DNA from: Yuukianura sp. NJ FZ-2021
Taxonomy: Eukaryota
Direction of reading: 5' to 3'
Assembly (NCBI GenBank): GCA_046563655.1
Contig: CM102290.1
Location: forward strand, 62,001 to 126,000
DNA: 64,000 bases
Of the stretch, positions 2,193 to 39,525 are shown piece by piece. A model generated the notes under the pieces. It was not told the DNA's origin. It did no database searches and was given only the letters and a program-made list of their open reading frames with translations. Within the stretch, counting starts at the first letter, position 1. Each line of letters starts with the position of its first letter. Both the position numbers and the translations under genes were made by a program.

Positions 2193-3101
2193 TTGTTGAG
2201 CCCAATTATTTATCTGGAATTTAAAATTATGGAGTTGGCGCCAATTCCGACAAGCGTCCTGCCTTTCTTATGAGTATCAAAATAACCTCTGGCTTTGACA
2301 GGAGAAAGTTATTTGTCAATTGGAAAGTTGTGCAAATTACTTGACCTTTAACGATTTATTTGGAACTTAAATGACTGTCGAACAGATTGAAACAGTTTCC
2401 AAAAAGGTATTTGTGGTCTCTTATCCAGAAGAAACACTCACTTCAACATCAATTCTTTGTTTTCGCTTAAATAACTCCATTTTCAAAACTGGAACCAAAA
2501 CCACGAAGAAAGGTAGCGAAAACAATGGAGAGAAAGTGAAATTGAAGAGATTTTGACCTTTGACTTTGATTAAACAACCGAACATGAAAGTAGAACTTGT
2601 GTTTTTAGAGTGGACGAAACCAAAACAGAAAATAAAGTTGAGTCAACTCACAAAAAGTCTCCCTGTTCTCAGGAACTTTTCCCGTTCTCACACTCAAAAA
2701 TTGAAGCCTTCTTTATGTGATGATGTTGGAAAAGCATGAAAAATGACTTTTTACATAAGAAAATTGTTGCAACTGTCAAGAAACAACAACTTTAGCATTA
2801 ATTGGCCAATTATTAATTAAAATTAATTAATTAACCTTTTCAGCCCTGTTTTCGGTTAAATAATTTGAAAAAAAACAACAACATTTTTTTAACTTTCATA
2901 AGAAAAGGACAAAGGAAGTTTAAGAAAAGGAAGCAGAAAAAATGGAAATGAAAAGTTTGTAGAACTTTTACTTAGATTTAAGAAGGGAAACTGTATGGAG
3001 AATATGCGAGTTTAGTATACCAAAACCAAAATAAAATTGAAGTGGATTCTGCCGGTTCTGAGGAACTTTCTCCATTTTTCTTAACAAAATGTTTTGTTTT
3101 C

Positions 3102-3253
3102 GGGGGTTTGGAGTTGGGATGGTCCCCACATGCATTTTTTCCATTGCCACCCACTCCCTCCCCCACCATCCAACTCCAAAAGAGTAAAACACTGCTTCGT
3201 TCTACTCCTTCCGCCTTCATATAAAAGGGAAGCTCAGCAAATTCTTTTCATTC
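3102..3253 (+). promoter_or_regulatory. Promoter module 1: inverted repeat + TATA + Inr
   Basis: TTGGAGTTGGGATGG (3108-3122) / CCATCCAACTCCAA (3166-3179); TATAAAAG 3220-3227; Inr TCATTC 3248-3253 with its A exactly 30 nt after the TATA T. Confidence 0.75.
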
Positions 3254-3538
3254 ACTTTTTGTTGTCGTTCGAGAGATGAAGGAAGAGGAGTCACAGTTTC
3301 CTTATGTAAACAAAGACAATCTGCTCCCTCTTCAGTTCTTTTTAATTGTCATCTCCAATTAACTTCCATTTTAGTTAATTGATCGATTGAATTATCAATC
3401 AAAAGATCCAGGGAATAGATGCATCAAAACATTGTAATTTTGAATTTGTGAAAAGATGTTGGGGGTTTGGAGTTGGGATGGTCCCTGCATGCATTTTTTT
3501 CATTGCCACCCACTCACTCCCCCACCATCCAACTCCAG

Positions 3539-4300
3539 GGGCCCAATTACGATTGAGAGTGACAGTTGGGGTATTTTTGGGGTAAAGCGTTTACCCCTTG
3601 ATTACTCCTCAAGTTACCCCCGATTACGAACTTTTTTGGAGTAATTTCGAAAAGTGTAACTTTGGAGTTTCCGCTTTACACTTTCTATACTCCGCGCTAA
3701 CTCCAAATTTTAAAAACATAAACAAACAAGCCGCATTCAAACTTCAAATCAAATAAGTCCCGGTCAGCTGTTCTTGATTTGATTCTTACAACATCAGTTC
3801 TAACATCGACATAAGGTGTAAAGTATTGAAAAAACGTTAAGATGCAATTCTTTCACAGAATCCAGACACACCGTAGGCGTTGCCACTCCTCATGGGTCAG
3901 GGGTTGACACTACGGTGTGTTTATGACTACCAAGTACGTTTATTTCCTAAATTTAGTTGCTTTCCATAGTTTAGTCACTGAGAGCTCATGTAAATGCATT
4001 TCAATCATGTTTTAAGTTAAATTTGTCGCAATGGGTGTATGAACGATTAGTCCCATGATACCATAGCGACCCCGTTTTAGAAATTATTTCGAGTTCAGAC
4101 TATACCATGCTAGATGAGCTATAAAATGACCCAAGTGTGATGGATGACCCTGCGGCGTTGGCACAGCTGCACTGGCATTGACACGCAGGGTCTTAATATT
4201 GGAATTACGTAGTAACAACCGATTCCGAAGCAATTAATTCGAAATGTTTTTGGAACTTTACCCCCACTGAACCCTCTAAGAGCAGGATAACTTTTCGGGT
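3539..4300. mobile_element. 762-bp insertion flanked by a 172-bp direct duplication
   Basis: 3367-3538 is repeated at 4301-4472; insertion absent from the homologous position in cassette 3; it truncates promoter module 2 (3461-3538). Confidence 0.7.
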
Positions 4301-4394
4301 CATTTTAGTTAATTGATCGATTGAATTATCAATCAAAAGATCCAGGGAATAGATGCATCAAAACATTGTAATTTTGAATTTGTGAAAAGATGTT

Positions 4395-4535
4395 GGGGGT
4401 TTGGAGTTGGGATGGTCCCTGCATGCATTTTTTTCATTGCCACCCACTCACTCCCCCACCATCCAACTCCAGAAGAGTAAAACACTGCTTCGTTCTACTC
4501 CTTCCGTCTTCATATAAATAGGAAGCTCAACCAAT
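4395..4535 (+). promoter_or_regulatory. Promoter module 3 (precedes leader B)
   Basis: Same inverted repeat; TATAAATA 4513-4520. Confidence 0.65.
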
Positions 4536-4622
4536 TCTCTCCTCCTCTGAATTATTTATGTGAATCTCAACCCCTGGTGCGGACTGCCGATGTAACAAGC
4601 TGCTTTTACAACTTTTGGTTTT

Positions 4623-4742
4623 TGTGATTTCGTCTCAAGTTCAAAGTCAACCTTGAGGCTAATCCTCTGAAAACAACAGAAACTGCTGACGATTATCGCA
4701 GCATTAGACGCCGCTACGATTTGAACTTGAGACGAAATTGCG
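4623..4742 (+). other. Leader-B long imperfect hairpin (candidate structured RNA)
   Basis: ATTTCGTCTCAAGTTCAAA pairs with TTTGAACTTGAGACGAAAT and extends by G:U pairs; homologues at ~7575-7695 and ~17175-17292. Confidence 0.55.
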
Positions 4743-4944
4743 GGAAATCTTTTCAAAATTTCAAAAGTCAAAATCAAAACAACTAAAGAAAGATCCAGAT
4801 CAAATTCTAATTCACCAGCTAATAATTTGAGGGAAGGAAGTGAACATTAACAATTTTGAATTTTAGTTATAACTCTGATGTGACGTTTGACCTAGGACTG
4901 ACCTCTACTGCTTGGGTCAACGTATCTACACAAGTACAGCGACC

Positions 4945-5290
4945 ATGCTAACTGCCAATTGGAATGGATGGCTAAAAGACCTCGGTCCCTGTCCCTGGAC
5001 ACTGCGGACGACATATCGCTACCGTTCGACCCAGCGCCTTGTGTATTCGGAATTCGGTGACCCAGCTCAAGTACTCCGCTTCGAAGACAACGTCGACATT
5101 GGTACAGGGAAGGACCGGGTAAGGGCACTTGTCTTCGCAAAAAAAAAAAACAAACAAATCAGTGTTTTTGTTTTAACAATCCTTTTCTTCTGAGTTTCAG
5201 CTTGTTGTGAAGATGCTTGGCAGTCCAGTGAATCCGGCGGACATCAACACAATCCAGGGGAATTATCCCATCAAACCCAAAATATTTCCT
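4945..5290 (+). pseudogene. MECR: 5' fragment of mitochondrial trans-2-enoyl-CoA reductase
   Basis: ATG 4945; exons 4945-5118 and 5201-~5290 (GT-AG intron) give LVYSEFGDPAQVLR...VKMLGSPVNPADINTIQGNYPIKP; homology then stops. Confidence 0.8.
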
Positions 5291-5310
5291 ATTTTCCGTC
5301 TACTTCCCAG

Positions 5311-5759
5311 GGACTTGTTGCTTGGATTGGAAACTTGGAGAACAGTGTCACTGGCGGCGGCGGCTCTTCAGCCACTTCTGTTGGGAGCGAAGATGAGGCT
5401 TTGAATGCAAAATGCGAGGACCAGGCGAAAGAGATCTTCCGAGTGGATGACAAGAAACCAACTTGAAAATGCAAGTTCGCCTTCTCGATGGGAAGAAGTA
5501 AGAATGTCTTTTTGTAACCAACGAAAGAAACAATGAAATTAGTAACATGTTGTTTATTAACAGAATGTCTGTGGTGCTGAAGAACACGGTGACTGTGGGA
5601 CAACTCCGCCAGTACATCACAATTGCTCGGCCATCGCTCGCTGAAGTGCCGTTTCGCCTTTTCGCTGGTCATCCAAGCAAGGCCATTGAAGATGAGACAG
5701 CAACGTTGGAAGACGCCACCATGGCAAACGCCGTGATTCTCCTCCAACAAGCCAAATGA
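5311..5759 (+). pseudogene. 3' fragment of a p47/p37-type p97 cofactor (UBX domain), frameshifted
   Basis: ...VDDKKPT/MQVRLLDGK|intron|MSVVLKNTVTVGQLRQYITIARPSL...FAGHPSKAIEDETATLEDATMANAVIL resembles the NSFL1C/UBXN2 C-terminus; TGA at 5464-5466 plus 1-nt frameshift. Confidence 0.75.
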
Positions 5760-7044
5760 TTCAAACAATGCTGCCTTTGAATCAAACACAATTCCAATTT
5801 TTCAAAAAAAAAAAGTTAAATATGAAACAGCACTTGCCCAACGAATTTCACACTTATTAGACGACTATCCTTTTCGTTTTCATTCTTAAATTGCAAAGTA
5901 TTTCAATCAAAATGGATTATCCTTTTAAGCGGTTTTCGTTGTTTTGTTCAACTCCTCAGAATTCGGAAATAAAATTTTAATTTTTTTCACTTACGATCAT
6001 CACAGAACCATTACGTTTTACTAAAACTAATTAAGTTTGAGTGCATTCTTCGCAGTTTTCTAGATTGTCTTTCGTTTGTATTTTTTAATAATGCCCATAT
6101 GTGAAGTTATGAAGGGTGCACAGAAAAACTGTTTGTTGGACTATATTTTTGTTTAATTTTAAATTGAGTAGTTGGCGCCTTTGTTGCTCGGAAGGCGTCT
6201 TGTCTTCTTATGAGGACCAAAAACGCCTTCAAGGAGAAAGTTATTTCGCCAATTGGAAAGTTGTGCAAATTACGAACCCTTTAACGGTTAATTTGATACT
6301 GAAAATAGCGGTTGATCAGAATGAAACAACTTTCATTAGTGTAGTCCATCTTTATTCACCACAAGAAACACTTCTTTTAACTTAACTTCCATTTTACACG
6401 CTTAGATTTTGATTAAAGTGAATTTTCAAACAGAAACTAAAACTAGGAAGAAAGTTGGTGAAAATAATGCAAAGAAAGTTAAATTGGAAAGCTTTTGCCC
6501 TTTGATTTTGTTGGGACAAGAGAAAATGTGTGGAGGATTTGTGTTTGAGAGTGGACGAAAGTGAAACTGAGAATAAAGTGGAGTCAACCCTCAAAGACTC
6601 TCCATGTTCTCACCAACTTTCTGTGCTTTTCACACTCAAAAAAATTCAAGTTTTTCTGACGAAATGATGATAGAAAGTCATCACAAATGACTTTTTACCA
6701 AAGAAAATTGCTACAACTGATGTTTCTGTTTTTTTACAAGAAAACAACACTAATTTCCGCATTAATTGGCCTTTTTAGCTCTGTTTTGGGTTAAATGACA
6801 TGAAAAATTCTTTTTTTTAACTTTCATACGAAAAGTACAAAGAAAGTTGGAGAAAGGATGCAGGAAAAGTGAAATTAAAAAGCTTTTTGAGCTTTTATTT
6901 AGATTTGAGAAGCAAAAGTGCATGGAGAAGATGCGAGTTTGGTGTTCAAAAACCAAAATAAAATTGAAGCGGAGTGAACTCCAATGTATTCTGCCTGTTC
7001 TGAGGAACTTTCTCTGTTTTTCCACACAAAAAGTTGGAATTTTT

Positions 7045-7196
7045 GGGGGTTTGGAGTTGGGATGCTCCCCGCCTGCATTTTTTCCATTGCCACCCACTCC
7101 CTCCCCCACCATCCAACTCCAAAAGAGTAAAACACTCCTTCGTTCTACTCCTTTCGTCTTCATATAAAAGGGAAGCTCAACAAATTCTTTTCATTC
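7045..7196 (+). promoter_or_regulatory. Promoter module 4
   Basis: Inverted repeat from 7051; TATAAAAG 7163-7170; TCATTC 7191-7196 (A at +30). Confidence 0.75.
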
Positions 7197-7412
7197 ACTC
7201 TTGTCTGTTCTGCGAGAGATGAGGGCAGAGAACACAGTCTCCTCATGTAAACAAACATCATATGTTTCTTCTTCACTTATTTCTAATTTATGCGTGAGAA
7301 AGTTGTTAGAGGTGTGAGCCATTTCAATGTATTTTTATTTGAAAATTAAGTTAATTACTCATTAAATCACTCATTAACTTGATTGAGTGTCATTTTGCTT
7401 CTTCAAGTTGTT

Positions 7413-7491
7413 GACTGAGGTGATTTTGGTTTTGTGTTTCCTTTTATATGAGAAGGAGAGGAGTAACAAGTTACTCTTCGAGGAGTTGGAT
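7413..7491 (-). promoter_or_regulatory. Inverted, degenerate promoter module
   Basis: Minus strand reads ATCCAACTCC..AAGAGTAA..TACTCCT..TCATATAAAAGG; TATAAAAG at 7448-7441; Inr TCAGTC at 7418-7413 (A at +32). Confidence 0.6.
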
Positions 7492-7900
7492 CCAGCTCGC
7501 TCAAAGTATTTATAGGAATCTCATCCCGGGTGCGGACCCCGAGCGAACAAGCTGCTTTTACAACTTTTGTTTTTGTCCTTTCGTCTCAACTGCAATCCAA
7601 GTCATATTGAAGGCTAATCCTCTGAAAATAGCAGAAACTGCTGACGGTTATCTCAGTATTCGTCAATTTTGCAACTTGAACTTGAGACAAAAGTGCGGGA
7701 ACTCTTTTCAAAATCCAAAAGTCAAAAATAAAATTAAACTTGCAACTGGAAGATCAAATCAAATTGAAAAAGAAGAAGAGCTAGAGGCAAGTCAATTTAA
7801 TTGTAATTAACGTAATCAATGATTAAGTTAATTAGTGCTTAACTCCTCTTCCTAATTCGAAGGCCCATCAGTTGATACGTGATTTGACAACTATAGTGGA

Positions 7901-8563
7901 ATGATTGACGTGCGGGACATTCTTGACCTGGGGAATGAGGTCCCTGGGTCATCTGTGCAGAAGAAGCCGCAACGGAAGGTAAACAACCGCTTAAAATATT
8001 GTGAATGTTCTTTAATTAGCTAAGTTATATCTTAATTAGTCTAAACTTCAGTCAAAGTAACTAGTTTCTTTGTTGTTTTGTAGTCGAACATTGTGTTCAA
8101 GCGTCCGGAGTGCATGCCAAGTGAGTTGTATGCTCTACTGTGTGCTGACGACGGTGGAAAGAACCTGGAACTAGCTCCATTGTTGCCAACGGATATCACA
8201 GGCGGATACAAACAGAAAGTTAATCTAGGAGCCTAGAAAGTGCGGCACTGGAAGTGGACGCCTTTTACAAATCCAGGACGAACCGACGGAGCAGTATTTT
8301 ATCACTGGAGACGAGTGGGAGAAGAGACTAGAGAGTATCCATTTGCTAAATTCAACAAAGTAACTCTGAACTACTAAACTTAGTTAAATAACTTCAGTTC
8401 TTAATTAACTAAATTGTTTTCATGTTAACAGGAGATTCCGATCTTGAAGTACTCAGAGGCCGAGTACTCGAATCATCTTGAGAAAGAAGGGTGGACGAAG
8501 GAGGAGACTGATCATCTCTTTGACCTCGCCAGAAGATTCAACCTTAGATTCCCCATCATGCAG
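7901..8563 (+). pseudogene. DMAP1: 5' fragment of DNA methyltransferase 1-associated protein 1
   Basis: Three exons: MIDVRDILDLG..|..FKRPECMPSELYALL..KVRHWKWTPFTNPGRTDGAVFYHWRR..YPFAKFNK|..WTKEETDHLFDLARRFNLRF; in-frame TAG 8234-8236; cut off in the next intron by promoter module 5. Confidence 0.9.
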
Positions 8564-8622
8564 GTAAGACTCATCCATGGTTTCACTCTTTGATTTCTAA
8601 TTTTAGTTAACCCCCTAATTTT

Positions 8623-8780
8623 GGGGGTTTGGAGTTGGGATGGTCCCCACATGCATTTTTTCCATTGCCACCCACTCTCTCCCCCATCATCCAACTCCAA
8701 AAGAGTAAAATCCAAAGAAATCCTACTCCTTCCAGCTTCATATAAATGGGAAGCTCATACAATTCCTCTACTTCACTCAC
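8623..8780 (+). promoter_or_regulatory. Promoter module 5 (stand-alone, no upstream block)
   Basis: Inverted repeat from 8629; TATAAATG 8741-8748; followed by a different GC-richer leader. Confidence 0.65.
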
Positions 8781-10055
8781 GTCTCTGTCTTGGACGTGGA
8801 GACGGAGAGGAAGGGTTTTCGTGTTTGAGAGATGGCGCTGCAGAGAGAGGGTGACTGGTGTTGTGTGTGGCTTTTAGTGCAACCGGCGTCTCCTTCATTT
8901 GAATTTTCTCCCTCCTTCCTGCCGCATTCGTCTCCTCTTCGTCACTTTTGTTCCTCTGTCTTCAGCTGTATCCTCTCCCGCAAGTAAAGTGTCCGTTACT
9001 TTAATTCAAGTTTAATTAACGTTCATCGATTAACCATTGTTGTTAGTTAGTAGTTGTTAGTCATAATCTCATGACCATACAAAGTGTCAACTACAGGTAA
9101 CAACAACTAACAACTAAAGGAACCAAAAGTCATAAGGTCAAGGTCTAACGGTCAATGTTTGTTGCTTTGTTTTAGTTGGGACTTGGGAATGGGGCTTTCT
9201 AAAAATGGACACCCACTTCATCACCTTCCAAATCGGCATCACCTCTTCCAAATCTTTTGATCCTGCATCTCAATTCTCCATTTCAGTCGTCGTTCCTCTT
9301 GTGCAAACTTTGGCGACGAAGCATTCCCACCTCTCCATTTCTACTACTTCAATCGTTGCTCAAGTACTTGGAAGGTAGGACGCGAAGCACTTTTCACATT
9401 CCACTTTCCACATTTTGATAACAAGGTAAGGAACACTCTTTTTCATTACTCCTAGTTGACATTTAGTCATTTGTTTGGGCTTCAATTGGTCATAGTGAGA
9501 ACCGTTGAGGTCAAACGTAGTTCAAAGGTCAGGTCACTTGGACAAACGTAATTCGGAAGGGAGGGACTTTACCGGGGTTCAGTCCTTACATGAGGTGCTA
9601 AGAATGGAATTGAGATGCTGGGAAGACAAATGGCCCAACACTTGCCATCTTTGTATTTGCCAGTGTTTATATTCCATCTTCATTCCTTTAGACTCAATCA
9701 ATTAAGTTCCAGTGCAGGGTGACACTGGATTCATTTACCTAACGTACACTTCCAAGGTAGCTAAGAGATTCTTCTCAAAACAACTAACGCATTCCACAGC
9801 ATCTCAATTCCAAAGTTATTGTATGATTCTGATCCCACGCTATTTTTGTTTTTGGTTTTAAGTGGCAAGATGCTAACACTTCTATTCTTGCCTAAGTATT
9901 TTAAAGTTCAACTGAAGTTATGTACTTTTGTTTTTGTTTAGAGGGAGTAGTGTGGCTATGGGGGACTCTGCATCACTATTTTTAGCTCAGCCGTAGGGAC
10001 TAGTCGCGAGCAGTATTTGGGAGGGGAAATAGCTTAAAAATGACCAAATATCAGA

Positions 10056-10398
10056 AACGGTTTGCTTTTTGAATTTTTAGTGGGGGATTTTAAAAGTTCT
10101 TTGAAAAACAACTTTTCTCTAGGAAAACTTTTTTTTAATTTTAAATTACTTCTCAAACGTTACTTTTTGAATTTTTAGTGGGGGATTTAAAAAGTTCTTT
10201 TAAGAACAACTTTTCTCTAGAGAAACGTTTTTAAAAATAATTTTAGTTACTTCTCAAACGTTGCTTTTTGAATTTTTAGTGGGGATTTAAAAAGTTCTTT
10301 TAAAAACAACTTTTCTCTAGAAAAACTTTTTTTTTAATTTTAAGTTACTTCTCAAACGTTGCTTTTTGTATTTTTAGTGGGGGATTTAAAAAGTTCTA
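10056..10398. repeat. ~100-bp tandem repeat, ~3.4 copies
   Basis: AAACG..GCTTTTTG unit starts near 10056, 10155, 10256, 10354. Confidence 0.9.
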
Positions 10399-10439
10399 TC
10401 CTTTCAAGTATCCTTATTTAGTAATCCTTATTTCTAGGT

Positions 10440-12092
10440 ATCGAATCATTCGCAACTTTTTAGCTTTTCAAATATTTAATCCTTACTTTTAAGCCTCAAT
10501 TCTTCGCAACTTTTTATCTTTTCAAATATTTAATCCTTACTTTTAAGCTTCGAATCCTCCGCAATTTTTTCTATCCTTTTAACCATTAAATTCTTAGTCC
10601 TAAGCTTCGAATCCTTCGCCGCTTTCTATCTTTTTAACCATTAAATTCGTCGTTCTAAGCTTCGAATCCTTCGCCGCTTTCTATCTTTTTAACCATTAAA
10701 TTCTTAGTTCTAAGCTTCGAATCCTTCGCCACTTTCTATCTTTTTAACCATTAAATTCTTAGTTCTAAGCTTCGAATCCTTCGCCACTTTCTATCTTAAC
10801 CATTAAATTCTTAGTTCTAAGCTTCGAATCCTTCGCCACTTTCTATCTCTTTAACCATTAATTCTTAGTTCTAAGCTTCGAATCCTTCGCCACGTGCTAT
10901 CTTTTTCACCATTAAATTCTTAGTTCTAAGCTTCGAATCCTTCGCCACGTTCTATCTTTTTAACCATTAAATTCTTAGTTTTAAGCTTCGAATCCTTCGC
11001 CACTTTCTATCTTTTTAACCATTAAATTCTTAGTTCTAAGCTTCGAATCCTTCGCCACTTTCTATCTTTTTAACCATTAAATTCTTAGTTCTAAGCTTCG
11101 AATCCTTCGCCACTTTCTATCTTAACCATTAAATTCTTAGTTCTAAGCTTCGAATCCTTCGCCACTTTCTATCTCTTTAACCATTAATTCTTAGTTCTAA
11201 GCTTCGAATCCTTCGCCACGTGCTATCTTTTTCACCATTAAATTCTTAGTTCTAAGCTTCGAATCCTTCGCCACGTTCTATCTTTTTAACCATTAAATTC
11301 TTAGTTTTAAGCTTCGAATCCTTCGCCACTTTCTATCTTTTTAACCATTAAATTCTTAGTTCTAAGCTTCGAATCCTTCGCCACTTGCTATCTTTTTCAC
11401 CATTAAATTCTTAGTTCTAAGCTTCGAATCCTTCGCCACTTTCTATCTCTTTAACCATTAATTCTTAGTTCTAAGCTTCGAATCCTTCGCCACGTGCTAT
11501 CTTTTTCACCATTAAATTCTTAGTTCTAAGCTTCGAATCCTTCGCCACGTTCTATCTTTTTAACCATTAAATTCTTAGTTCTAAGCTTCGAATCCTTCGC
11601 CACTTGCTATCTTTTTCACCATTAAATTCTTAGTTCTAAGCTTCGAATCCTTCGCCACTTGCTATCTTTTTCACCATTAAATTCTTAGTTCTAAGCTTCG
11701 AATCATTCGCCACTTTCTATCTTTTTAACCATTAAATTCTTAGTTCTAAGCTTCGAATCCTTCGCCACTTGCTATCTTTTTCACCATTAAATTCTTAGTT
11801 CTAAGCTTCGAATCCTTCGCCACTTGCTATCTTTTTCACCATTAAATTCTTAGTTCTAAGCTTCGAATCCTTCGCCACTTGCTATCTTTTTCACCATTAA
11901 ATTCTTAGTTCTAAGCTTCGAATCCTTCGCCACTTGCTATCTTTTTCACCATTAAATTCTTAGTTCTAAGCTTCGAATCCTTCGCCACTTGCTATCTCTT
12001 TAACCATTAAATTCTTAGTTCTAAGCTTCGAATCCTTCGCCACTTTCTATCTTTTTAACCATTAGATTTTTAGTTCTAAGCTTCGAGTCCTT
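10440..12092. repeat. 55-bp satellite, ~30 copies (AAGCTT site in nearly every unit)
   Basis: Unit AAGCTTCGAATCCTTCGCCACTTTCTATCTTTTTAACCATTAAATTCTTAGTTCT; a shared deletion variant recurs 326 bp apart (10791, 11117). Confidence 0.97.
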
Positions 12093-12094
12093 AA

Positions 12095-12928
12095 AGGTAA
12101 AAATTTGCATTCATAGAGAAATTTTTTAAAGAATTTATTATTCTCTGTTAAGGTGTAAATTCACATTCGGAGACAAAATTTTTTAAAGAATTTATTATTC
12201 TCTGTTAAGGTGTAAATTCACATTCGGAGACAAATTTTTTAAAGAATTTATTATTTTCTGTTAAGGTGTAAATTCACATTCGGAGACAAATTTTTTAAAG
12301 AATTTATTATTTTCTGTTAAGGTGTAAATTCACATTCGGAGACAAATTTTTTAAAGAATTTATTATTTTCTGTTAAGGTATAAATTCACATTCGGAGACA
12401 AATTTTTTAAAGAATTTATTATTCTCTGTTTAGGTGTAAATTCACATTCGGAGACAAATTTTTTAAAGAATTTATTATTCTCTGTTAAGGTGTAAATTCA
12501 CATTCGGAGACAAAATTTTTTAAAGAATTTATTATTCTCTGTTAAGGTGTAAATTCACATTCGGAGACAAAATTTTTAAAGAATTTATTATTTTCTGTTA
12601 AGGTGTAAATTCACATTCGGAGACAAAATTTTTAAAGAATTTATTATTTTCTGTTAAGGTGTAAATTCACATTCGGAGACAAATTTTTTAAAGAATTTAT
12701 TATTTTCTGTTAAGGTATAAATTCACATTCGGAGACAAATTTTTTAAAGAATTTATTATTCTCTGTTAAGGTGTAAATTCACATTCGGAGACAAATTTTT
12801 TAAAGAATTTATTATTCTCTGTTAAGGTGTAAATTCACATTCGGAGACAAATTTTTTAAAGAATTTATTATTCTCTGTTAAGGTGTAAATTCACATTCGG
12901 AGACAAATTTTTTAAAGAATTTATTATT
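12095..12928. repeat. 56-bp satellite, ~15 copies
   Basis: Unit AAATTCACATTCGGAGACAAATTTTTTAAAGAATTTATTATTCTCTGTTAAGGTGT. Confidence 0.97.
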
Positions 12929-13696
12929 TAGTTTGTCGATATTGAAGTGACGGACTTTTTTTCGTTTGAGATATCTGGTCATTTTGAAGTCCCCCCCCCC
13001 CTCCCAATACTGCGCCCGGCTAGTCCCTACGGCTGAGCTAAAAATAGCGAGGCTGAGTTCCTCCCACCCACACTACTGAAGGTGCTGCGACGAGTATTGG
13101 GAAGAGGTGCCGTTGCGGAAATGAAGATGCGATCACGTGGCCTGACGGTGAAGCAATGGCCAACTTCCGGAAGAAGAAGGATGAACTGGAGTTGTACATG
13201 GAGAGAATGAACGAAGTCAAATGTAAGTCAATAATGTTCAGTATTCTTTAAAGAGTATCTTTGGTTGATTGACAGTTCCGGATGTGGTATGTGGTGAGAG
13301 CTTGATTGTTGATTCCTCCTCAATGTGTCTTTGGCCATGTCACTATTTGTGACAATAATATTTTTCTAGCTCTAAAACGTTACAATTACAAAGAGTAGTG
13401 TCGAGATGAGATACGATTTGTAGTTTTATATTGAAGATCCTAAACTTTTCTTGGTTCCTCCTCCCGACTTCTTTATATTTTTGGACAGGAGTCAAAAGAT
13501 TCGTAGAGAGGAAGAGACTTGGCATTAGTAAGCCAATTCTTGATTGAATCCCATTTAAGTTTACTCTAAAGTTATTTAGTGTAAAAGTTAATTAAAATCA
13601 ACTAAACTGGTCGTGTATAGTTAAAGTTAAGATGGATTTAATAACGTCCAAGAATGTCCCACGTCCCGCAACTGCTAATGGCGATTCCAATTTTGA

Positions 13697-15535
13697 ATGA
13701 ATGTCTTTAAGTAAAGAGGTTTACATGAAACGAATTACTAATTAAATTTTAATTAATTTTTTTGCTAAAGGGAGTCAACAGCCATCGAAACTTGGAGGGT
13801 ACGTCGCAGGTCAGACAAGGAAAGCATCACGAACTCCAGATCAAAACAATGTCAGACCCGGAACTCTTCTTGCAAGGTGCTCTCATTTGGATACGTTCAA
13901 GAGGTCACCTCAGTTGACCTCTTACCTCAAAGTCCACTCACTTTTGTTTTTCCTAAAACAGACAAGGAATACGAACTGAAGGGAATCTACGGAAGATGTG
14001 TCTCTTGTGATACCGTTGTCGGAACTCAGCTCTGTCTCAGATGTACTTTCATTGGGTGTGTCAAGGGAGGGCACTTGAAGGAACACTTCGAAAGTACTGG
14101 ACACGAACTAGGTATTTAACTCACTCCTTCCTAAACTTAATTAATGTCTGATTGTCGATTGCTTTCTTTTTAGCCTCCAACTTGTCAAATGGATCGATCT
14201 ACTGCTTCAACTGCTCAGACATCTTTGTTGATCGTCCAGGCACTCATTCACACACCCATTCTACGTAACTTCTTCTTATCAAGTGAAATCAACTGCTCAG
14301 AAAAACATGACATCGGGAAGAGGAAACCCTGCATTGTCAGTTTGGTTGCGGATCTATACCAAGAGGTTTGTAAAGTTGCTGAAATGGGACCACAGTTCTC
14401 TTCTTTCTCATTAGCTCATTAATCTCATTAATCATGTGAAACTAATCCTGCTTTTGGTAACAGTTTTACAGTGGAAAGGAGACGGCGATGAGTTTGCATG
14501 ATTTGCTGTTCAAGATTTGGGCCAATGCTTCTCATTTGGCTGGTTACGAGTAACAAGATGCCCATGAATTCTTCATCGCCATGCTAGATGCTCTTCATCT
14601 GCATTTCCATGCTCCTGATCTCAGAGGAATCTGTAACTGTGTCATCGATCTCATCTTCCTGGGCAAACTGGAATCAGCTGTTACTTGCATCAGGTGTGAG
14701 TAAGACTCTCCTATAAATAGCAGCACTACAGCATTTAATTGAAATTGGTTCAGTTAAAACGTTTTTTTTTTCATTCTATGTAACCAGTCACAAGTCCATC
14801 ACTGTTGATCCATTCTGGGATACTTCACTTGACTTAATGACAGATGACCCCGGAGTAACATTGACCCTGAGTGATTGCCTCACTCGCTACACGAGAGTGG
14901 AGCACTTGGGCTCCACTGCAAAGATTTGGTGTACAAAATGCAACAGCAACCAGGAATCAACGAAACAACTCAAGTTCAAATCCCTTCCGATGGTTCTCTG
15001 TCTCCACCTCAAGGTAATTTATTACTAATTACTAATTACTTTTGTAATTACTTTCAGTTCCAGTTTACTAACAAAGTATTTTTTGTTTTGCAGCGGTTTG
15101 AGCACAGGACGAGCTATAAGATTGACACGAGAGTATAATTTCCCGAGCATCTGTCAATGTATGACTACACCTCGGACTCTGCCATCCAGGAAGAACCAGG
15201 CTCCAACCTCCGATCCAGTGTCAACAGACTAAGTGCCAAGTAAGTAAGTACTTTTTTTTACAAGGTTTTCAACTTTACAAGTTTCAAGTTTTTAAGTTTT
15301 GAGACTCCTAACCTAGCTTTTTGTGACAGATATGTGCTGTATGCAGTGGTAAACCACGTGGGTTCGCTGGAAGGCGGTCACTATTACTTACATCCTGCAC
15401 GCAGGGGGGACTTGGTACAAATGTGACGACCACTGGGTCACTATCATCCATCAGTCAGAAGTACTCGCCAGTCCAGGATACTTGCTCTTCTACCACAAAC
15501 AAATCATCTCAAAACCCATTTCCATCTCACAGTAA
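13697..15535 (+). pseudogene. USP22: USP22/nonstop-like deubiquitinase pseudogene (introns retained)
   Basis: ZnF-UBP (CLRCTFIGCVKGGHLKEH..GSIYCFNC), [30 protein letters not shown] (TAA 14551-14553), [14 protein letters not shown], second stop 15136-15138, VVNHVGSLEGGHY then frameshift, WYKCDD..GYLLFYHK; Cys-box absent; start position tentative. Confidence 0.88.
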
Positions 15536-16583
15536 ACCAATAGTCTAATTCAGATTAATCGATTAACGATTAGGGTAGTTAAAAGTCAAGTTCAGAGGCT
15601 CATTGAACACTCCCATTCAAAGGCAGTGACGCAGAGTTAAAGGGACTCTTTTTATGACACAAAGAGCAAAACAAGTTTGTTGATTTTTTTTTCAACTTTC
15701 TAAATAATTTGTCGATGATGAAGTAACTTTTGATTTTTAGAGTATCTTATACTTAAATCTGTAAAAATGAGATACTTTGGAGAAAGTTGATTCGTCATTT
15801 GCAGCCTTAGGAACTTTAATGATTAATTTGGAACTTAAAATGGCAACTGACCAAGCTTAAACAATTTTTGCAAGGTATTGCATATTTCTCCAACATAAGA
15901 AACATTTACTTCAGTAATAACTCCATTGTAAGTCTTGTTTTCATTTAAAAATTCCATTTTCAAACGAAAACAAAAATTAGAAAGAAAGCTGGTGAAAGTA
16001 AGGTGGAGAAGGTGAAATTGGAAAGCATTTGAACTTTGAAGTTTGTTTGGACAAGCGAAAATTGATTTAGAGTTTGTGTTTTTAGAGTAGACAAAACTCA
16101 AAATAAAACTGAAAGTGGAGTCAACTGCGAAGGAGTCTCCCTGTTTTCAGGAACTTTCTGTGTTTTTCACACTCAAGAAATTGAAGTTTTCCTTACGAAA
16201 TGATGAAGGAAAAGCATGACAAATAACTTTTTACACAACAAAATTAATAAGTAAAACTGTCTTTCTTGTCTCTTCACACGAAGAAAACAATAATTTCAGC
16301 AATAATTGGCCTTTTTAGCCCTGTTTTCAGTTAAATGACCTGAAAAATGCATTTTTTTAACATTCATAAGAAAAGGACAAAGAAAGTTTAGGGAAAGGAT
16401 GCAAAAGAAGTGAAATTGAGCAGCTTTTGGTACTTTCACTTGGATTTTAGAAGCGAAAGTGTATGGAGAAGACGTGAGTTTGGTGTTCAAAAACCAAAAT
16501 AAAATTGAATTGGAGTGACGTCCCATAGATTCTGCGTGTTCTGAGAAACTTTCTCCGTTTTTCACTCGAAAATGTTTGTTTTT

Positions 16584-16736
16584 GGGGGGTTTGGAGTTGG
16601 GATGGTCCCTGGATGCATTTTTTCCATTGCCACCCACTCCCTCCCCCACCATCCAACTCCAAAAGAGTAAAACACTCCTTCGTTCTACTCCTTTCGTCTT
16701 CATATAAAAGGGAAGCTCAGCAAATTCTTTTCATTC
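16584..16736 (+). promoter_or_regulatory. Promoter module 6
   Basis: TATAAAAG 16703-16710; TCATTC 16731-16736 (A at +30). Confidence 0.75.
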
Positions 16737-16943
16737 ACTTTTTGTTGTCGTTCGAGAGATGAAGGAAGAGGAGTCACAGTTTCCTTATGTAAACAAAGAC
16801 AATCTGCTCCCTCTTCAGTTCTTTTTAATTGTCATCTCCAATTAACTTCCATTTTAGTTAATTGATCGATTGAATTATCAATCAAAAGATCCAGGGAATA
16901 GATGCATCAAAACATTGTAATTTTGAATTTGTGAAAAGATGTT

Positions 16944-17090
16944 GGGGGTTTGGAGTTGGGATGGTCCCTGGATGCATTTTTTCCATTGCCACCCACTCCC
17001 TCCCCCACCATCCAACTCCAAAAGAGTAAAACACTCCTTCGTTCTACTCCTTTCGTCTTCATATAAAAGGGAAGCTCAGCAAATTCTCTA
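16944..17090 (+). promoter_or_regulatory. Promoter module 7 (precedes leader B and ADAM10)
   Basis: Identical by eye to module 6 through AAATTCT; TATAAAAG 17062-17069. Confidence 0.7.
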
Positions 17091-17477
17091 CTCCTCCGAA
17101 CTATTTATGTGAATCTCAACCTCTGGTGCGGACCGCCGATGTAACAAGCTGCTTTGACAACTTTTGTTTCTGTCATGTCGTCTCAAGCCCAATCCAAGTC
17201 ATGTTGGAGGCTAGTCCTCCGAAAACAACAGAAACGGCTGATTTGGTTATCCGAGGACTAGGCACTACTAGACTTGAACTTGAGACAAAATTGCGGGAAG
17301 TTTTTTGAAAAGTCAAAATTACAAAAGAAAACCAAATAAAAAGAACAACTCATACTAATTTAATTAACTAATTTACAAATTCACCCAACTTAATTAATCA
17401 GTTGTTTCATTGCACAAAGAGATTAATGGAGTGGATTTAATTCTAATCATTATCCAAAGTGTCCATGCATCTACTCA

Positions 17478-20400
17478 ATGATCTTTGTGACGATGAACCC
17501 TTGGATACTTTCCCTTCTCATCCTCTTCAATCTGCAGCCGACGAATCCTGTCTCCAGTCATGGTCAGTCAACATTCCAAAATTTGAAACATTTCAACATC
17601 TAAACGCTTGTCATTTGGATCGTTTCAGAAGGTCCGACTGTCCGTCACTTTGAACAAGTTCGTTACAATCCCCTGTCTCACCAACTTCATAAAAGATCTA
17701 CAGACAATTCGTGGACAGTGGAACTGCACTCCCACGGAAGGACTTTCAAACTCCTCCTCACTCCAGACCAAACAACGATGGCTCCTCACATTTACATTGA
17801 GAATTCGGATGGACAGTTTGGAGGGACTGACCACTCGCCTGTCACCGGACGAATCCAAGGTGACGACGGATCCAGAGTCACTGGGCTCCTGTCCACGGAA
17901 GGAACGTTCGAAGGGGTCCTCATCACTGGAGCAGGAACTGAGTTCTACGTTGAGCCCACTCAAAGGTAATTGATATGTTATCAAGTTAGGCTCAACTAAA
18001 GCTGTTTTTTTGTTAACAGATACTGGAGTGACGATATCTTGCATGGAGAAAGTGTCATGTACCGGGCAGAGGATGTCCTCATACCCCCAGGAACACATTG
18101 TCAATCTCACATTCTCGCAGATCTCAGGAAGGGAAACGAAAGTCGAGTGCCGTTGAAACAATTCCAACTCAAACGACGTCGGGAGAAGCGTTGGCTCATT
18201 GATCAGCGGAAAAAGACGTGCATGCTATTCCTGCAAGCAGACTATAACTTTTTTAGTCGATTTGGAAGCGAAGAGGCAGCGATCAACGTGATGACAGGCC
18301 ACATCCAGCGCCTCAACGACATCTACAGACAAACAGACTTTAACCAGGACGGAGAGGCAGACGACATTCAGTTCATGATTAAGCGAATCAAAGTGCACAC
18401 AAAGAACAGTACTTTGGACCCCAAGTACCCCTACGATGGTCAGTTCGAAGTGATCAAGTTCCTAGAGCTCTTTTCCGAAGGAGACTACGACTCTTTCTGC
18501 CTCGCTTATCTCTTTACGTACAGAGACTTTGAGGGTGGGACTCTGGGACTCGCTTGGACAGGAGATCTCAAGAATGCTGGCGGTGTTTGTGAGAAGAAGG
18601 GCCACTTTCGCGGTGGGATCAAAAGTCTCAACACAGGCATCATCACACTCCTCAACTACGGAAAACTCGTGGCACCCGCAGTGTCACACGTCACTCTTGC
18701 CCATGAAGTCGGTAACAGCCAAACTAACTTTTACTTTTTTTTTGAAAAGTTCCTAGAGTTCGTAAAGTTGTGCATTTATTTACATTTAAATACAAAATTA
18801 ATTTACAGGTCACAACTTTGGATCACCGCATGACCCTGACCAAGACAAGTCCTGCACTCCTGGTGGAGACGATGGGAACTTTATCATGTTTGCTCGAGCG
18901 ACGGCCGGTGATCGTCGAAACAACAACAAGTTTTCCGCCTGCAGCCTCAAGAGCATGAATCCAGTCCTGAGTGTCAAAGCGAGAGACACTTATGGATGCT
19001 TCCAAGGTGAGAAAAGCCACACTTTTCCTAAGGAAAACTCTTTGCTTCCAGTGAAAGTTGTTTTATTGACTAAACTGGATTTCCAGAGCCGCAGAAGTCC
19101 ATTTGTGGGAATGGGGTTGTGGAGGAGGGGGAGGAGTGCGACTGCGGCTGGGAAGAGGACTGTCCTGAATCCTGCTGCTTCCCCATGCGACGTCTCGCTT
19201 GGACAGGCACTTCTGCAGGCACTCCCTGCCGACTCAAACCGCATGCACACTGCAGTCCGTCTCAAGGACCCTGCTGTACTCACGCCTGCACTCTCACCAC
19301 TGGCAACAAATGTCGCCAAGACAACGGATGCAGGTCCACTGCCTACTGCGACGGGCTCCGTCCACAATGCCCCCCTTCCCACTTCAAACCCAACCGAACA
19401 GTCTGCGACAAGAATTCTCACGTCTGCTTCATGGGAGTAAGTCACTCAACTGCCACAATTATTAGTACAATTATATAAATTACTTAATTAATTATATAAA
19501 TTAATAATAACAAGTACAATTGTCAGCGTTTTCATTTGAATTTTGTAGGAGTGCACTGGATCCATCTGCCTTGCCTTTGGTCTCGAGTCGTGTCAGTGTT
19601 CGCAGCAGTCCTTGGACAGAAACACCAAACTCTGCGAAGTCTGTTGCCGTCATTCTCCTCACACCGAGTGCATTTCCTCTTTTGACTGGAACGAAAGTCC
19701 CTACGATCTGCCCAGTGTGCTTGCCAAGCCAGGAACACCCTGTCGCAACTTCACCGGCTACTGCGACACACTACACACATGCAGAGAGGTACGCATTCTA
19801 ATCACTCTCAACATCAATTTCAACTGTCATTTGAACGTTTTAGGTGGACCCTTCAGGCCCTCTGGCCACCCTCAGGAAACTTCTATCAGCAGACGAAGGG
19901 CTGGCGACGATTGTAGAGTGGATTGACGACCACTGGTACGTTGTCATCTGTGTGCTCGCTCTCCTGCTCCTCCTCATGGTAACTTCCATTTTTACAACCA
20001 TACCCAATTCCAAGTTCACTTTGGAATGTGTTCTTGTAGGTCTTGAGTTTTCGAGTAAGAAGAAAGCAGCGTCTGAGGAGGCTCACTGTGCTCCACAGCA
20101 ACGTCCAAGCTATTCAGATCCAACGCTCTTATTTGGAAGACGCAGAAGGACAAAGGGGAGTGGTTTACCCCACTGCCATTCGGACCAAGATTCCTTTCAA
20201 GAGAAAAGTGCGAGAGAGACGGACGAAGCCAAAAGACAACAAGCGGAGGAGGAAGAGCGGGAAAGTGGGTGACTCTCGGAGAGGGAAGCGACAGCAAGGC
20301 ACTGGAGTGGAAGTACAGACAGCCACCGCTGCCACCCAACAGGACCGGAAGTGAGCATCCTCTTTGACGAAGGTTGAGGTTCTAACATAGTGGTGCTGGT

Positions 20401-20888: not shown

Positions 20889-21793
20889 AGGGGGACTTGA
20901 CTGGAACTGTAGGTGATGGTGCTAGGTTGTTATTGTCTTTCACATTAGTTTTAACCCCCTTAATTAACAATTCTCTATGGACTTGTTGTGATCAGGTGAT
21001 TGGCACTTGATGAAAAAGGAGATTATGTCCACAGCTGAGACGTCAGTGGGGTTGCGCTTAACTTGTAACTTCCTCTGGTACCCACACTTACATTCTCCTT
21101 TTCCATTCATTTTTACACATTTTACTAACGTTATCGTCCTCCATCCTTTTTATATTTAGCATTATAACGTTCTTTTTAGGAAAGTAAATTATCATGGGTG
21201 TAATGGCTTAGCAATAAATTCAAAACCTACTCGGCATTAATTTAATTAAGTAAGGCCAAAGTTGTGATACAAAACAAATGTAAGGATCCTTGTTGAGGCA
21301 TTTTTCATATTAACATATTAATACATACAAATATCAACTTTTCCGCCATTTCTTCCAGGGCTGGATCTCCAGTGGAAGAAATGGACGAAATTGTGAATCC
21401 AAGGGCAGGATTTTTGCCCGATGTTTACAACTAATTGACTGCAAAAGGCTAAAAAAAAGATGAAACTACATTGCAAAAACGAAGCATATATCGTTTCTAA
21501 ATAGGTTTTAACTAATTACTCAATTTTAACGGTGAAAGAATAGTTTTTTGATATTATTTAGTTTAAGTTTGAATTGTTTTTGAATTTGGCGCTAAATTGT
21601 TGATTTGTTCCATTGAGAAATTGTTTCGTGCATTTGAGTTGCATTTGTTCCAGTGGATATCCATTGGAAGTGTGAGTTTATTTTATTGGAAGTGGCCGTT
21701 TGAGCATTCATCCACAGTGAATAATAGGAGAGAAGGTGTGTGGGTACAAGTAGAAGTGTGCAGGTTGACTTCAAGACAGAAAAGTCGAGAAGG

Positions 21794-39128: not shown

Positions 39129-39525
39129 CAGTGTTGGTGGATGCTTAAACGTCCAGTGGTTTAATTTCCACTTTCACTGGATATCCACTGGAAGAAATGT
39201 GTTTCGAATGGACGAAACTAATAGTTGATGGAAGAAATAAAAAATTTGGCGCGAAATTCAAATAAATTCTTTGAAAATACAAAATATGTAATATCAAAAA
39301 GCTTTTCTTTCGCTGTTAAAATTAATTTATTACCTAAAACATTCAAAAACAATGTTTACTTCGTTTCTGTACTGTGTTTTAATTTTTTTAAGCTTTTTGT
39401 ATCCAATTAATACAAATCCCGAAGGCAAAGCTCCGCCTCATTGGATTCATCCATTTTGTCCATTTCTTCCACTGGATATCCAGGGGTGGACGAAATGTCA
39501 AAAAATTGGATATCCACCAACACTG
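39129..39525. mobile_element. hAT-like MITE
   Basis: 14-bp TIR CAGTGTTGGTGGAT; flanks ATTATAAG / ATTCTAAA (6/8). Related remnants near 21345-21390 and 48110-48171. Confidence 0.75.

Follow-up and report, generated by a model that had tools for sequence, protein, structure and literature searches.

A promoter-like segment recurring in mosaic copies within a patchwork of copied gene starts and gene fragments in Yuukianura sp.

Why a segment of about 144 bp that looks like a promoter should recur in front of several different sequences, as if it moved on its own, is the question raised by one stretch of the genome of Yuukianura sp. NJ FZ-2021 (assembly GCA_046563655.1, contig CM102290.1, positions 62,001 to 126,000 of the forward strand; these 64,000 nucleotides, numbered from their first letter, are called the window here). 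A preliminary description had noted in it a module of inverted repeat, TATA box and initiator (Inr), present seven times and moving independently of a surrounding cassette. The repeated module is real and beyond chance. Its copies and their sharp edges, the mosaics left by conversion and the broken gene fragments around them can be read directly from the DNA. We are about evenly inclined for and against the fuller interpretation developed below, namely that a promoter segment has been duplicated and is evolving in concert, within a local patchwork made up of copied starts of genes and of gene fragments. The kind of process is already known.

The window was searched with a repeat finder, which returned one direct-repeat family of seven copies in a 92-nt frame, 85-100% identical to the reference copy. 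The frames start at 3098, 3457, 4391, 7041, 8619, 16581 and 16940, giving successive spacings of 359, 934, 2650, 1578, 7962 and 359. Alignment of the copies with their flanks, together with BLAST, extended the repeated unit to about 144-145 bp. Both the repeat finder and the alignment placed the seven direct copies where they had been described, and an eighth, partial and inverted, was found in addition. A profile made from six copies (nhmmer, window) recovered all seven direct copies with E values from 1.8e-55 to 3.5e-27 and matched the eighth at 7491-7437 on the minus strand with E = 0.0014. A ninth profile match, at 51226-51159 (E = 0.019), was dismissed on reading, having neither the arms nor the TATA box. 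The copies are as follows, A-type and B-type copies being the first and second modules of the cassettes L1, L2 and L3 described below.

3102-3245, plus strand: c1, A-type, cassette L1; TATAAA at 3220, TCATTC with A+1 at 3250.
3461-3538, plus strand: c2, cut directly after the right arm at 3538, no TATA; lies within a perfect 172-bp duplicate of 4301-4472.
4395-4538, plus strand: c3, B-type, cassette L1; TATAAA at 4513, no TCAKTY at 28-33 nt.
7045-7188, plus strand: c4, A-type, cassette L2; TATAAA at 7163, A+1 at 7193.
7437-7494, minus strand: eighth copy, partial and inverted; TATAAA at 7448, TCAGTC with A+1 32 nt downstream on the minus strand.
8623-8766, plus strand: c5, solo; TATAAA at 8741; begins 54 nt past the last DMAP1 exon.
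16585-16728, plus strand: c6, A-type, cassette L3; TATAAA at 16703, A+1 at 16733; identical to c7 at 144 of 144 positions.
16944-17087, plus strand: c7, B-type, cassette L3; TATAAA at 17062; about 401 nt ahead of the ADAM10 start codon at 17493.

Read 5' to 3', the module consists of a run of five or six G, a left arm TTTGGAGTTGGGATGG, a C-rich loop of 43 nt, a right arm CCATCCAACTCCAAA and then AGAGTAAAA, followed in its 3' part by a 12-nt linker, CTACTCCTTYCGYCTTCA, TATAAA and GGGAAGCTCARCAAATTCT. In c6 the arms occupy 16590-16605 and 16649-16663 and form a 15-nt inverted repeat around the 43-nt loop, with one bulged G. The inverted partial copy could be aligned over the right arm and AAGAGTAA, then across a linker shortened by 10 nt, and over the TATA block. 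The window contains 31 occurrences of the arm word TTGGAGTTGG (at most one mismatch), where 7.18 would be expected. No shuffle out of 100 reached this count, and the paired arms of the seven direct copies account for 14 of the 31. TATAAA is present in six of the seven direct copies, as had been stated; the remaining copy, whose frame starts at 3457, ends at 3538, before the TATA box. The most diverged copy is c5, with 84-87% identity to the others.

The likeness to a promoter was judged against the Drosophila core promoter, for which PMC4581360 gives the Inr consensus TCAKTY, from -2 to +4, and the TATA box consensus TATAWAAR, with its 5' T at -30 or -31. In three of the six TATA-bearing direct copies (c1, c4 and c6) the A+1 of TCATTC lies exactly 30 nt after the first T of TATAAA, at 3250, 7193 and 16733, and their TATAAAAG fits TATAWAAR. 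The 30-nt spacing given in the preliminary description is therefore present and matches the Drosophila-type geometry given there. These three cases amount to one event, because they are copies of one ancestral leader. The resemblance to a focused core promoter of the Drosophila type is confined in its Inr to the three A-type copies and the inverted partial copy, whose TCAGTC matches TCAKTY at 32 nt. The copies c3, c5 and c7 have no TCAKTY at 28-33 nt and carry a pyrimidine tract where the Inr would be; c7 carries TATAAAAG without an Inr, and c3 (TATAAATA) and c5 (TATAAATG) are both off the consensus at position 7. On both strands of the window, 5 of 42 TATAAA words have TCAKTY at 28-33 nt, and four of these five are module copies (three direct and the inverted partial one).

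In the solo copy c5 both the repeat block and the TATA block are preserved. Its 12-nt linker has changed at all but two positions without any change of length, a pattern that would fit two constrained blocks held at a fixed spacing. On this reading the module would be a promoter only, ending 5 nt before the predicted start: the proximal and core promoter piece, from about -148 to -5, of a 5'-end cassette that was copied as DNA. Judged from the sequence, promoter activity, the splice sites mentioned below and a role for selection are all plausible.

The alternative is that the module is not a working promoter and is simply the latest-homogenised piece of a decaying duplicon patchwork, in which the TATA box and Inr are fortuitous. 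Two of the three cassettes do precede broken or chimeric genes, and the TATA box is no better kept than other columns of the alignment. Chance sits poorly, however, with the rarity of TATAAA and TCAKTY at the canonical spacing in the window, and one cassette precedes, where a promoter would be expected, an ADAM10 gene that appears intact and opens with a signal-peptide-like sequence. The two blocks retained in c5 despite the change of linker, the first of them with an exact tract of 55 nt shared with c1, also argue against it. An inactive module is, on this evidence, distinctly unlikely.

Self-BLAST showed that the module is part of a larger 5'-end cassette of about 1.2-1.5 kb, present three times at 74-80% identity. 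The order in a full cassette is U block, module A, leader A, V block, module B, leader B. The U block is itself an internal duplication of about 393 bp, and modules A and B are 359 bp apart in L1 as well as in L3.

2207-4787, plus strand: cassette L1 (by self-BLAST), consisting of U, c1, leader A, V, c2, a 762-bp insert (3539-4300), V', c3 and leader B.
6144-7733, plus strand: cassette L2, consisting of U, c4, leader A, a diverged V with the inverted partial module, and leader B (7504-7733).
15811-17340, plus strand: cassette L3, consisting of U, c6, leader A, V, c7 and leader B; upstream of an ADAM10/kuzbanian-like gene.

Between L1 and L2 the aligned pieces (2207-3347 and 6144-7288) are 74.3% identical, and between L2 and L3 (6279-7288 and 15814-16830) 79.8%. 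L1 and L3 share one piece at 80.4% (2343-3537 and 15811-17020) and another at 88.1% (4301-4787 and 16850-17340). The leader B pieces 4550-4779, 7504-7733 and 17099-17331 are 79-80% alike. In L1 a perfect 172-bp direct duplicate (3367-3538 = 4301-4472) brackets the 762-bp insert, which explains the truncated copy c2; the insert itself has roughly baseline depth in the contigs of the DNA runs considered below. L2 has no direct module B; the position is taken by the inverted partial copy. The start of L1 adjoins an inverted repeat pair, 305-649 and 1876-2192 (345 bp, 91% identical, with 14/28-nt tandem sub-repeats), which surrounds an AT-rich core of 1.2 kb and resembles a foldback-type element.

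Leader A is 56 nt long and ends in a GTAAAC donor-like site, after which the sequence is intron-like. Leader B, of about 220 nt, is predicted to form a long hairpin in all three copies, with 46 predicted pairs of which two show compensatory changes.

17168-17301, 4620-4752 and 7572-7705 (approximate limits): leader B hairpin, by fold prediction.

The full cassette would thus carry two promoters, promoter A giving leader A and promoter B giving the hairpin-forming leader B. The distance from the predicted start to the ATG is about 401-404 nt in all three cassettes, and the start codons at 4945 and 17493 are each preceded, at a distance of about 430 nt, by a B-type TATA box; the approximately 155-168 nt between leader B and each of the three start codons have no alignable homology. 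A third leader, at 8770, had been proposed as separate, and this could not be maintained: the homology of c5 to the A-type copies continues 18 nt past the module (7041-7206 and 8619-8784, 83%). An RNA gene of the Pol III type-3 or small nuclear RNA type was also considered and is unlikely, as leader B has internal runs of four or five T at about +75 in all three copies, leader A has T5 at +7 in c1 and c6, and no Rfam match was obtained for positions 1-22000 at E up to 1. TTAATTA-type words are abundant in the short introns or intron-like stretches at 7980-8083, 8363-8432 and 16789-16940.

The module is the best-kept part of the cassette, with 92-100% identity between cassette copies. When the three cassettes were aligned in 50-nt windows, the three windows within the module scored 0.90-1.00 and the 16 within the U block 0.40-0.92. 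The copies c6 and c7 match without a single difference over a stretch of exactly 144 nt (16585-16728 = 16944-17087), and their flanks are unrelated on both sides. Three further exact tracts were found. One of 273 bp joins L1 and L3 (3215-3487 = 16698-16970) and runs from the TATA box of module A across leader A and the V block to a point within the module B loop; upstream of it the same two cassettes are about 80% alike, and 273 consecutive matches against such a background are practically excluded by descent alone (0.8^273). A tract of 106 bp is common to L2 and both L3 modules (7074-7179 = 16614-16719 = 16973-17078), and the 55-bp tract shared by c1 and c5 is 3102-3156 = 8623-8677.

The alignment of the modules has 152 columns, of which 118 are invariant and 34 variable (19 without c5). 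Position 30 separates c1 and c4 from c3, c6 and c7; position 97 separates c1 and c3 from c4, c6 and c7; and position 140 separates c1, c6 and c7 from c3 and c4. The site pairs 30/97 and 97/140 each show all four combinations, that is, incompatible patterns. These sites, together with exact tracts lying in diverged flanks, lead us to read the copies as products of repeated non-allelic gene conversion, both within cassettes (between A and B) and between cassettes up to 13 kb apart. The expectation that homology would break at the module edges was borne out, since A-type, B-type and solo copies start and stop sharing sequence there. The sharp edges of the supposed independently moving module thus stand, but the apparent movement is mostly accounted for by gene conversion between copies.

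The mechanism that we favour would therefore run as follows. Short tracts would be copied repeatedly from module to module, probably aided by selection on promoter function, and it is this copying that would have left the modules 92-100% alike while the rest of the cassette is at 74-80%. Conversion and ectopic repair would tend to start and stop at or in the modules because these are the longest near-identical stretches, and a module at which they end would come to resemble a unit that moves itself. A similar state of affairs is reported for human long terminal repeats (LTRs; PMC4921805). They share with this locus the near-identical short repeats in diverged surroundings and the mosaic sites, the exact tracts being 55-273 bp here. 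The repeats here are, on our reading, promoter segments of cassettes 0.36-13 kb apart and not retroviral LTRs as in that account.

The inverted repeat had been taken for a recombination or protein-binding site that makes the promoter a rearrangement breakpoint. In this explanation the repeat would itself be fragile or recombinogenic, as a hairpin or cruciform, or would be bound by a recombination protein, and the promoter would be a structural hotspot. There is a weak hint of this at two places: c2 breaks off at 3538, 1 nt from where the right arm ends, and the inverted copy sets in 2 nt within that arm, counted from its start. Beyond its break, the c2 sequence partly complements the left flank (18-nt arms, 78%), and three left contexts (U, V and the DMAP1 intron) adjoin the same G run. 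The fold itself gives little encouragement. Five DNA sequences (four copies, one of them on both strands) gave z values from -1.07 to 0.01, with 25-95 of 200 shuffles folding equally well or better. In the minimum-energy fold the left arm pairs with the C-rich loop and the right arm is bypassed; the longest ungapped stem is 11 nt. All seven copies were also searched on both strands for a canonical G-quadruplex, defined as four runs of three or more G separated by loops of 1-7 or 1-12 nt, and none was found. Elsewhere in the window there are 27 more short-range inverted repeats, each 14 nt or longer, with neither repeats nor rearrangements around them. Most junctions lie at the outer module edges, 5 nt and 65 nt from the arms, and just two breakpoints are at arm edges, chosen post hoc. 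The recombination-site reading is mostly unsupported, and we regard a fragile inverted repeat as improbable.

Together with part of the loop the arms make up three copies of one word. In the whole window GGAGTKGG was counted 33 times, where 3.9 would be expected, and 19 of these are within module copies. A cluster of this kind would suit sites for one DNA-binding protein, but the loop copy has been lost in c2, c3 and c5. Outside the cassettes (23014-61917) there are 13 further occurrences, all on the minus strand, compared with the 3.9 expected on both strands of the whole window; these may reflect coding or composition, or the site may be genuinely common.

What stands behind the cassettes was then read from the translated frames and their homologues. 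An ADAM10/kuzbanian-like gene (about 17493-20300) lies behind L3. Its start codon at 17493 opens a signal-peptide-like sequence, and its best named relative is from the springtail Orchesella cincta, with 77% identity over the aligned part. The sequences behind the other two cassettes are these.

4945-5759, plus strand: chimeric frame behind L1, with an MECR-like N-terminal exon (5198-5284) and a UBX-domain C-terminal exon (5502-5759).
7901-8565, plus strand: DMAP1 fragment behind L2, colinear with residues 45-131 of DMAP1 and interrupted in frame by TAG at 8234-8236.

The MECR-like exon at 5198-5284 matches enoyl reductases in the PDB with E = 3e-7; it is the second exon, and the first (5021-5116) gave no PDB match. 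In the DMAP1 fragment, 8084-8233 resembles residues 45-87 of human DMAP1 and 8237-8362 residues 91-131, in the same frame and with the TAG between them. The next exon follows the SANT_DAMP1_like profile no further than position 52 of 80, and a donor site ends it at 8565. None of 33 plus-strand frames of at least 25 amino acids in 8566-13800 (satellite excluded) continues DMAP1. The satellite in question, 2.6 kb at 10470-13036 in units first of 55 and then of 56 nt, lies between c5 and a USP gene, with a GC skew of -0.39 in 10001-12000.

It had been proposed that c5 stands alone inside a DMAP1 intron and truncates that gene. The copy does begin just downstream of the final exon in a DMAP1 fragment whose SANT domain is incomplete, but it is not an insertion. 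Since DMAP1 does not resume after c5 in any of those 33 frames, c5 marks the junction of two copied segments and does not interrupt an otherwise intact intron. Both the MECR/UBX and the DMAP1 fragments keep introns and were therefore copied as DNA. If the module is a promoter, the cassette would head the ADAM10 gene and two patchwork genes (MECR/UBX and truncated DMAP1), and the solo copy c5 would head a fourth unit. Chimeric genes and duplicon patchworks formed by partial DNA duplication are a close parallel, intron-containing MECR, UBX and DMAP1 fragments each standing behind a copied promoter-plus-leader. The present locus differs in that a stretch of 15 kb contains three uses of one cassette, whose promoter segment has been homogenised separately.

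The stretch is present in five DNA runs belonging to two studies. Copies beyond the window were sought in the contigs of three of these runs (X1, X2 and X4, the last from a different study), compared with positions 2200-9400 at a threshold of 90%. Depths were summed over contigs, and summed contig depth is not the same as copy number.

X1: single-copy-looking bins 132-187, module bins 1042-2173.
X2: single-copy-looking bins 448-540, module bins 4760-11263.
X4: single-copy-looking bins 7-15, module bins 94-222.

In X4 the contigs cover 2200-3126 and 3158-3488, confirming the arrangement c1, leader A, V, c2 in a second study. Two pattern scans of metagenomes and one scan of prokaryote genomes gave no match. 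Rfam gave none for positions 1-22000 at E values up to 1, and a 135-amino-acid frame across the module and U block had no protein homologue at E up to 0.001.

Several observations weigh against concerted evolution in a purely local patchwork. The module bins are about 6-16 times as deep as the single-copy bins in X1, and similarly so in X2 and X4. The leader B bin of L2 has a depth of 837 in X1, about five times baseline, and its paralogues in the window are just 79-80% alike, under the 90% threshold. A leader A variant seen in the loose ends of run contigs has no match in the window at up to three mismatches. These depths and loose ends are a hint that there are probably more copies of the family elsewhere in the genome, which local duplication alone does not predict. 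Conversion alone does not explain why two internal structural breakpoints lie 1-2 nt from right-arm ends. TATAAA is invariant in all six copies that have it, yet with so many other columns equally invariant it is not demonstrably better kept than its neighbours, and from the copies in the window selection on the module cannot be separated from conversion.

Some of these points would be expected if the module, or the whole cassette, were a dispersed mobile or self-propagating repeat family whose promoter had been co-opted, the copies arising by separate insertions. The depth of the module bins and the leader A variant both fit such a family, as do the depth of the L1 U block in X4 (2200-2922; 74-91 against a baseline of 7-15), the many mosaic joints and loose ends of the run contigs (more than 242 loose ends) and the presence of the solo c5 and the inverted partial copy in otherwise unrelated surroundings. 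The structure of the unit is less favourable. The inverted repeat is not terminal: all copies still match for 5 nt or more beyond the left arm and for about 65 nt beyond the right one. The edges of the unit show no target-site duplication. Nor is the unit LTR-like, for the predicted start falls 5 nt past it, there is no R region and no TGG-type primer-binding site follows c6. The absence of Rfam, protein, metagenome and prokaryote matches noted above, and the reading of c5 as a junction of duplicated segments, also count against it. Separate insertion of a mobile family is unlikely.

Two specific types of element were rejected. Miniature inverted-repeat transposable elements (MITEs) and transposon-derived promoters are likewise short, have an inverted repeat, occur in several copies and supply a TATA box, whereas the arms of the module are internal and neither terminal repeats, target-site duplication nor a matching autonomous element was seen. 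Homology continues past both arms, through the G run on the left side and for about 65 nt, as far as the TATA block, on the other, and there is no direct repeat at the unit edges of c5, c6 and c7. An LTR or terminal-repeat retrotransposon in miniature was set aside in the same way, as the identity of c6 and c7 stops 5 nt before the predicted start and the sequence after c6, TTTCATTCAC, is without a TGG site; TGGGGG starts six of the seven copies, and they have no common CA end.

A promoter that copies and pastes itself is a further possibility, in which the unit would be a TATA promoter of about 145 bp that lacks any transcribed portion, and ectopic copying by conversion-like repair would be seeded at GGAGTTGG(G)ATGG words, land genome-wide and seed chimeric genes. 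We think this improbable. If true, it would provide a eukaryotic counterpart of the bacterial 'mobile promoters', giving start sites to gene fragments. These prokaryotic promoters (PMC3575422) resemble the module in being promoter-sized pieces that recur before unrelated sequences, apart from any gene. The differences are that the genome here is an animal one, that most copies ride on a larger cassette and that conversion explains much of the pattern.

Two other features of the window are recorded for completeness. Three tandem TTAGG units, the insect-type telomere word, occur at 57-71 near its start, and an inverted duplicate of about 345 bp (21331-21672 and 39169-39513, 74% identical, 17.5 kb apart) is unrelated to the cassette.

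Should the module be inactive, what remains is no more than a decaying duplicon patchwork. The locus also lends itself to testing whether an internal inverted repeat biases the places at which such rearrangements break. If the module is active, one small promoter would drive at least four adjacent units, two of them new chimeric or truncated genes. It would then be a compact natural example of genes gaining promoters through the copying of DNA, and would show concerted evolution at work on a regulatory element instead of coding sequence.

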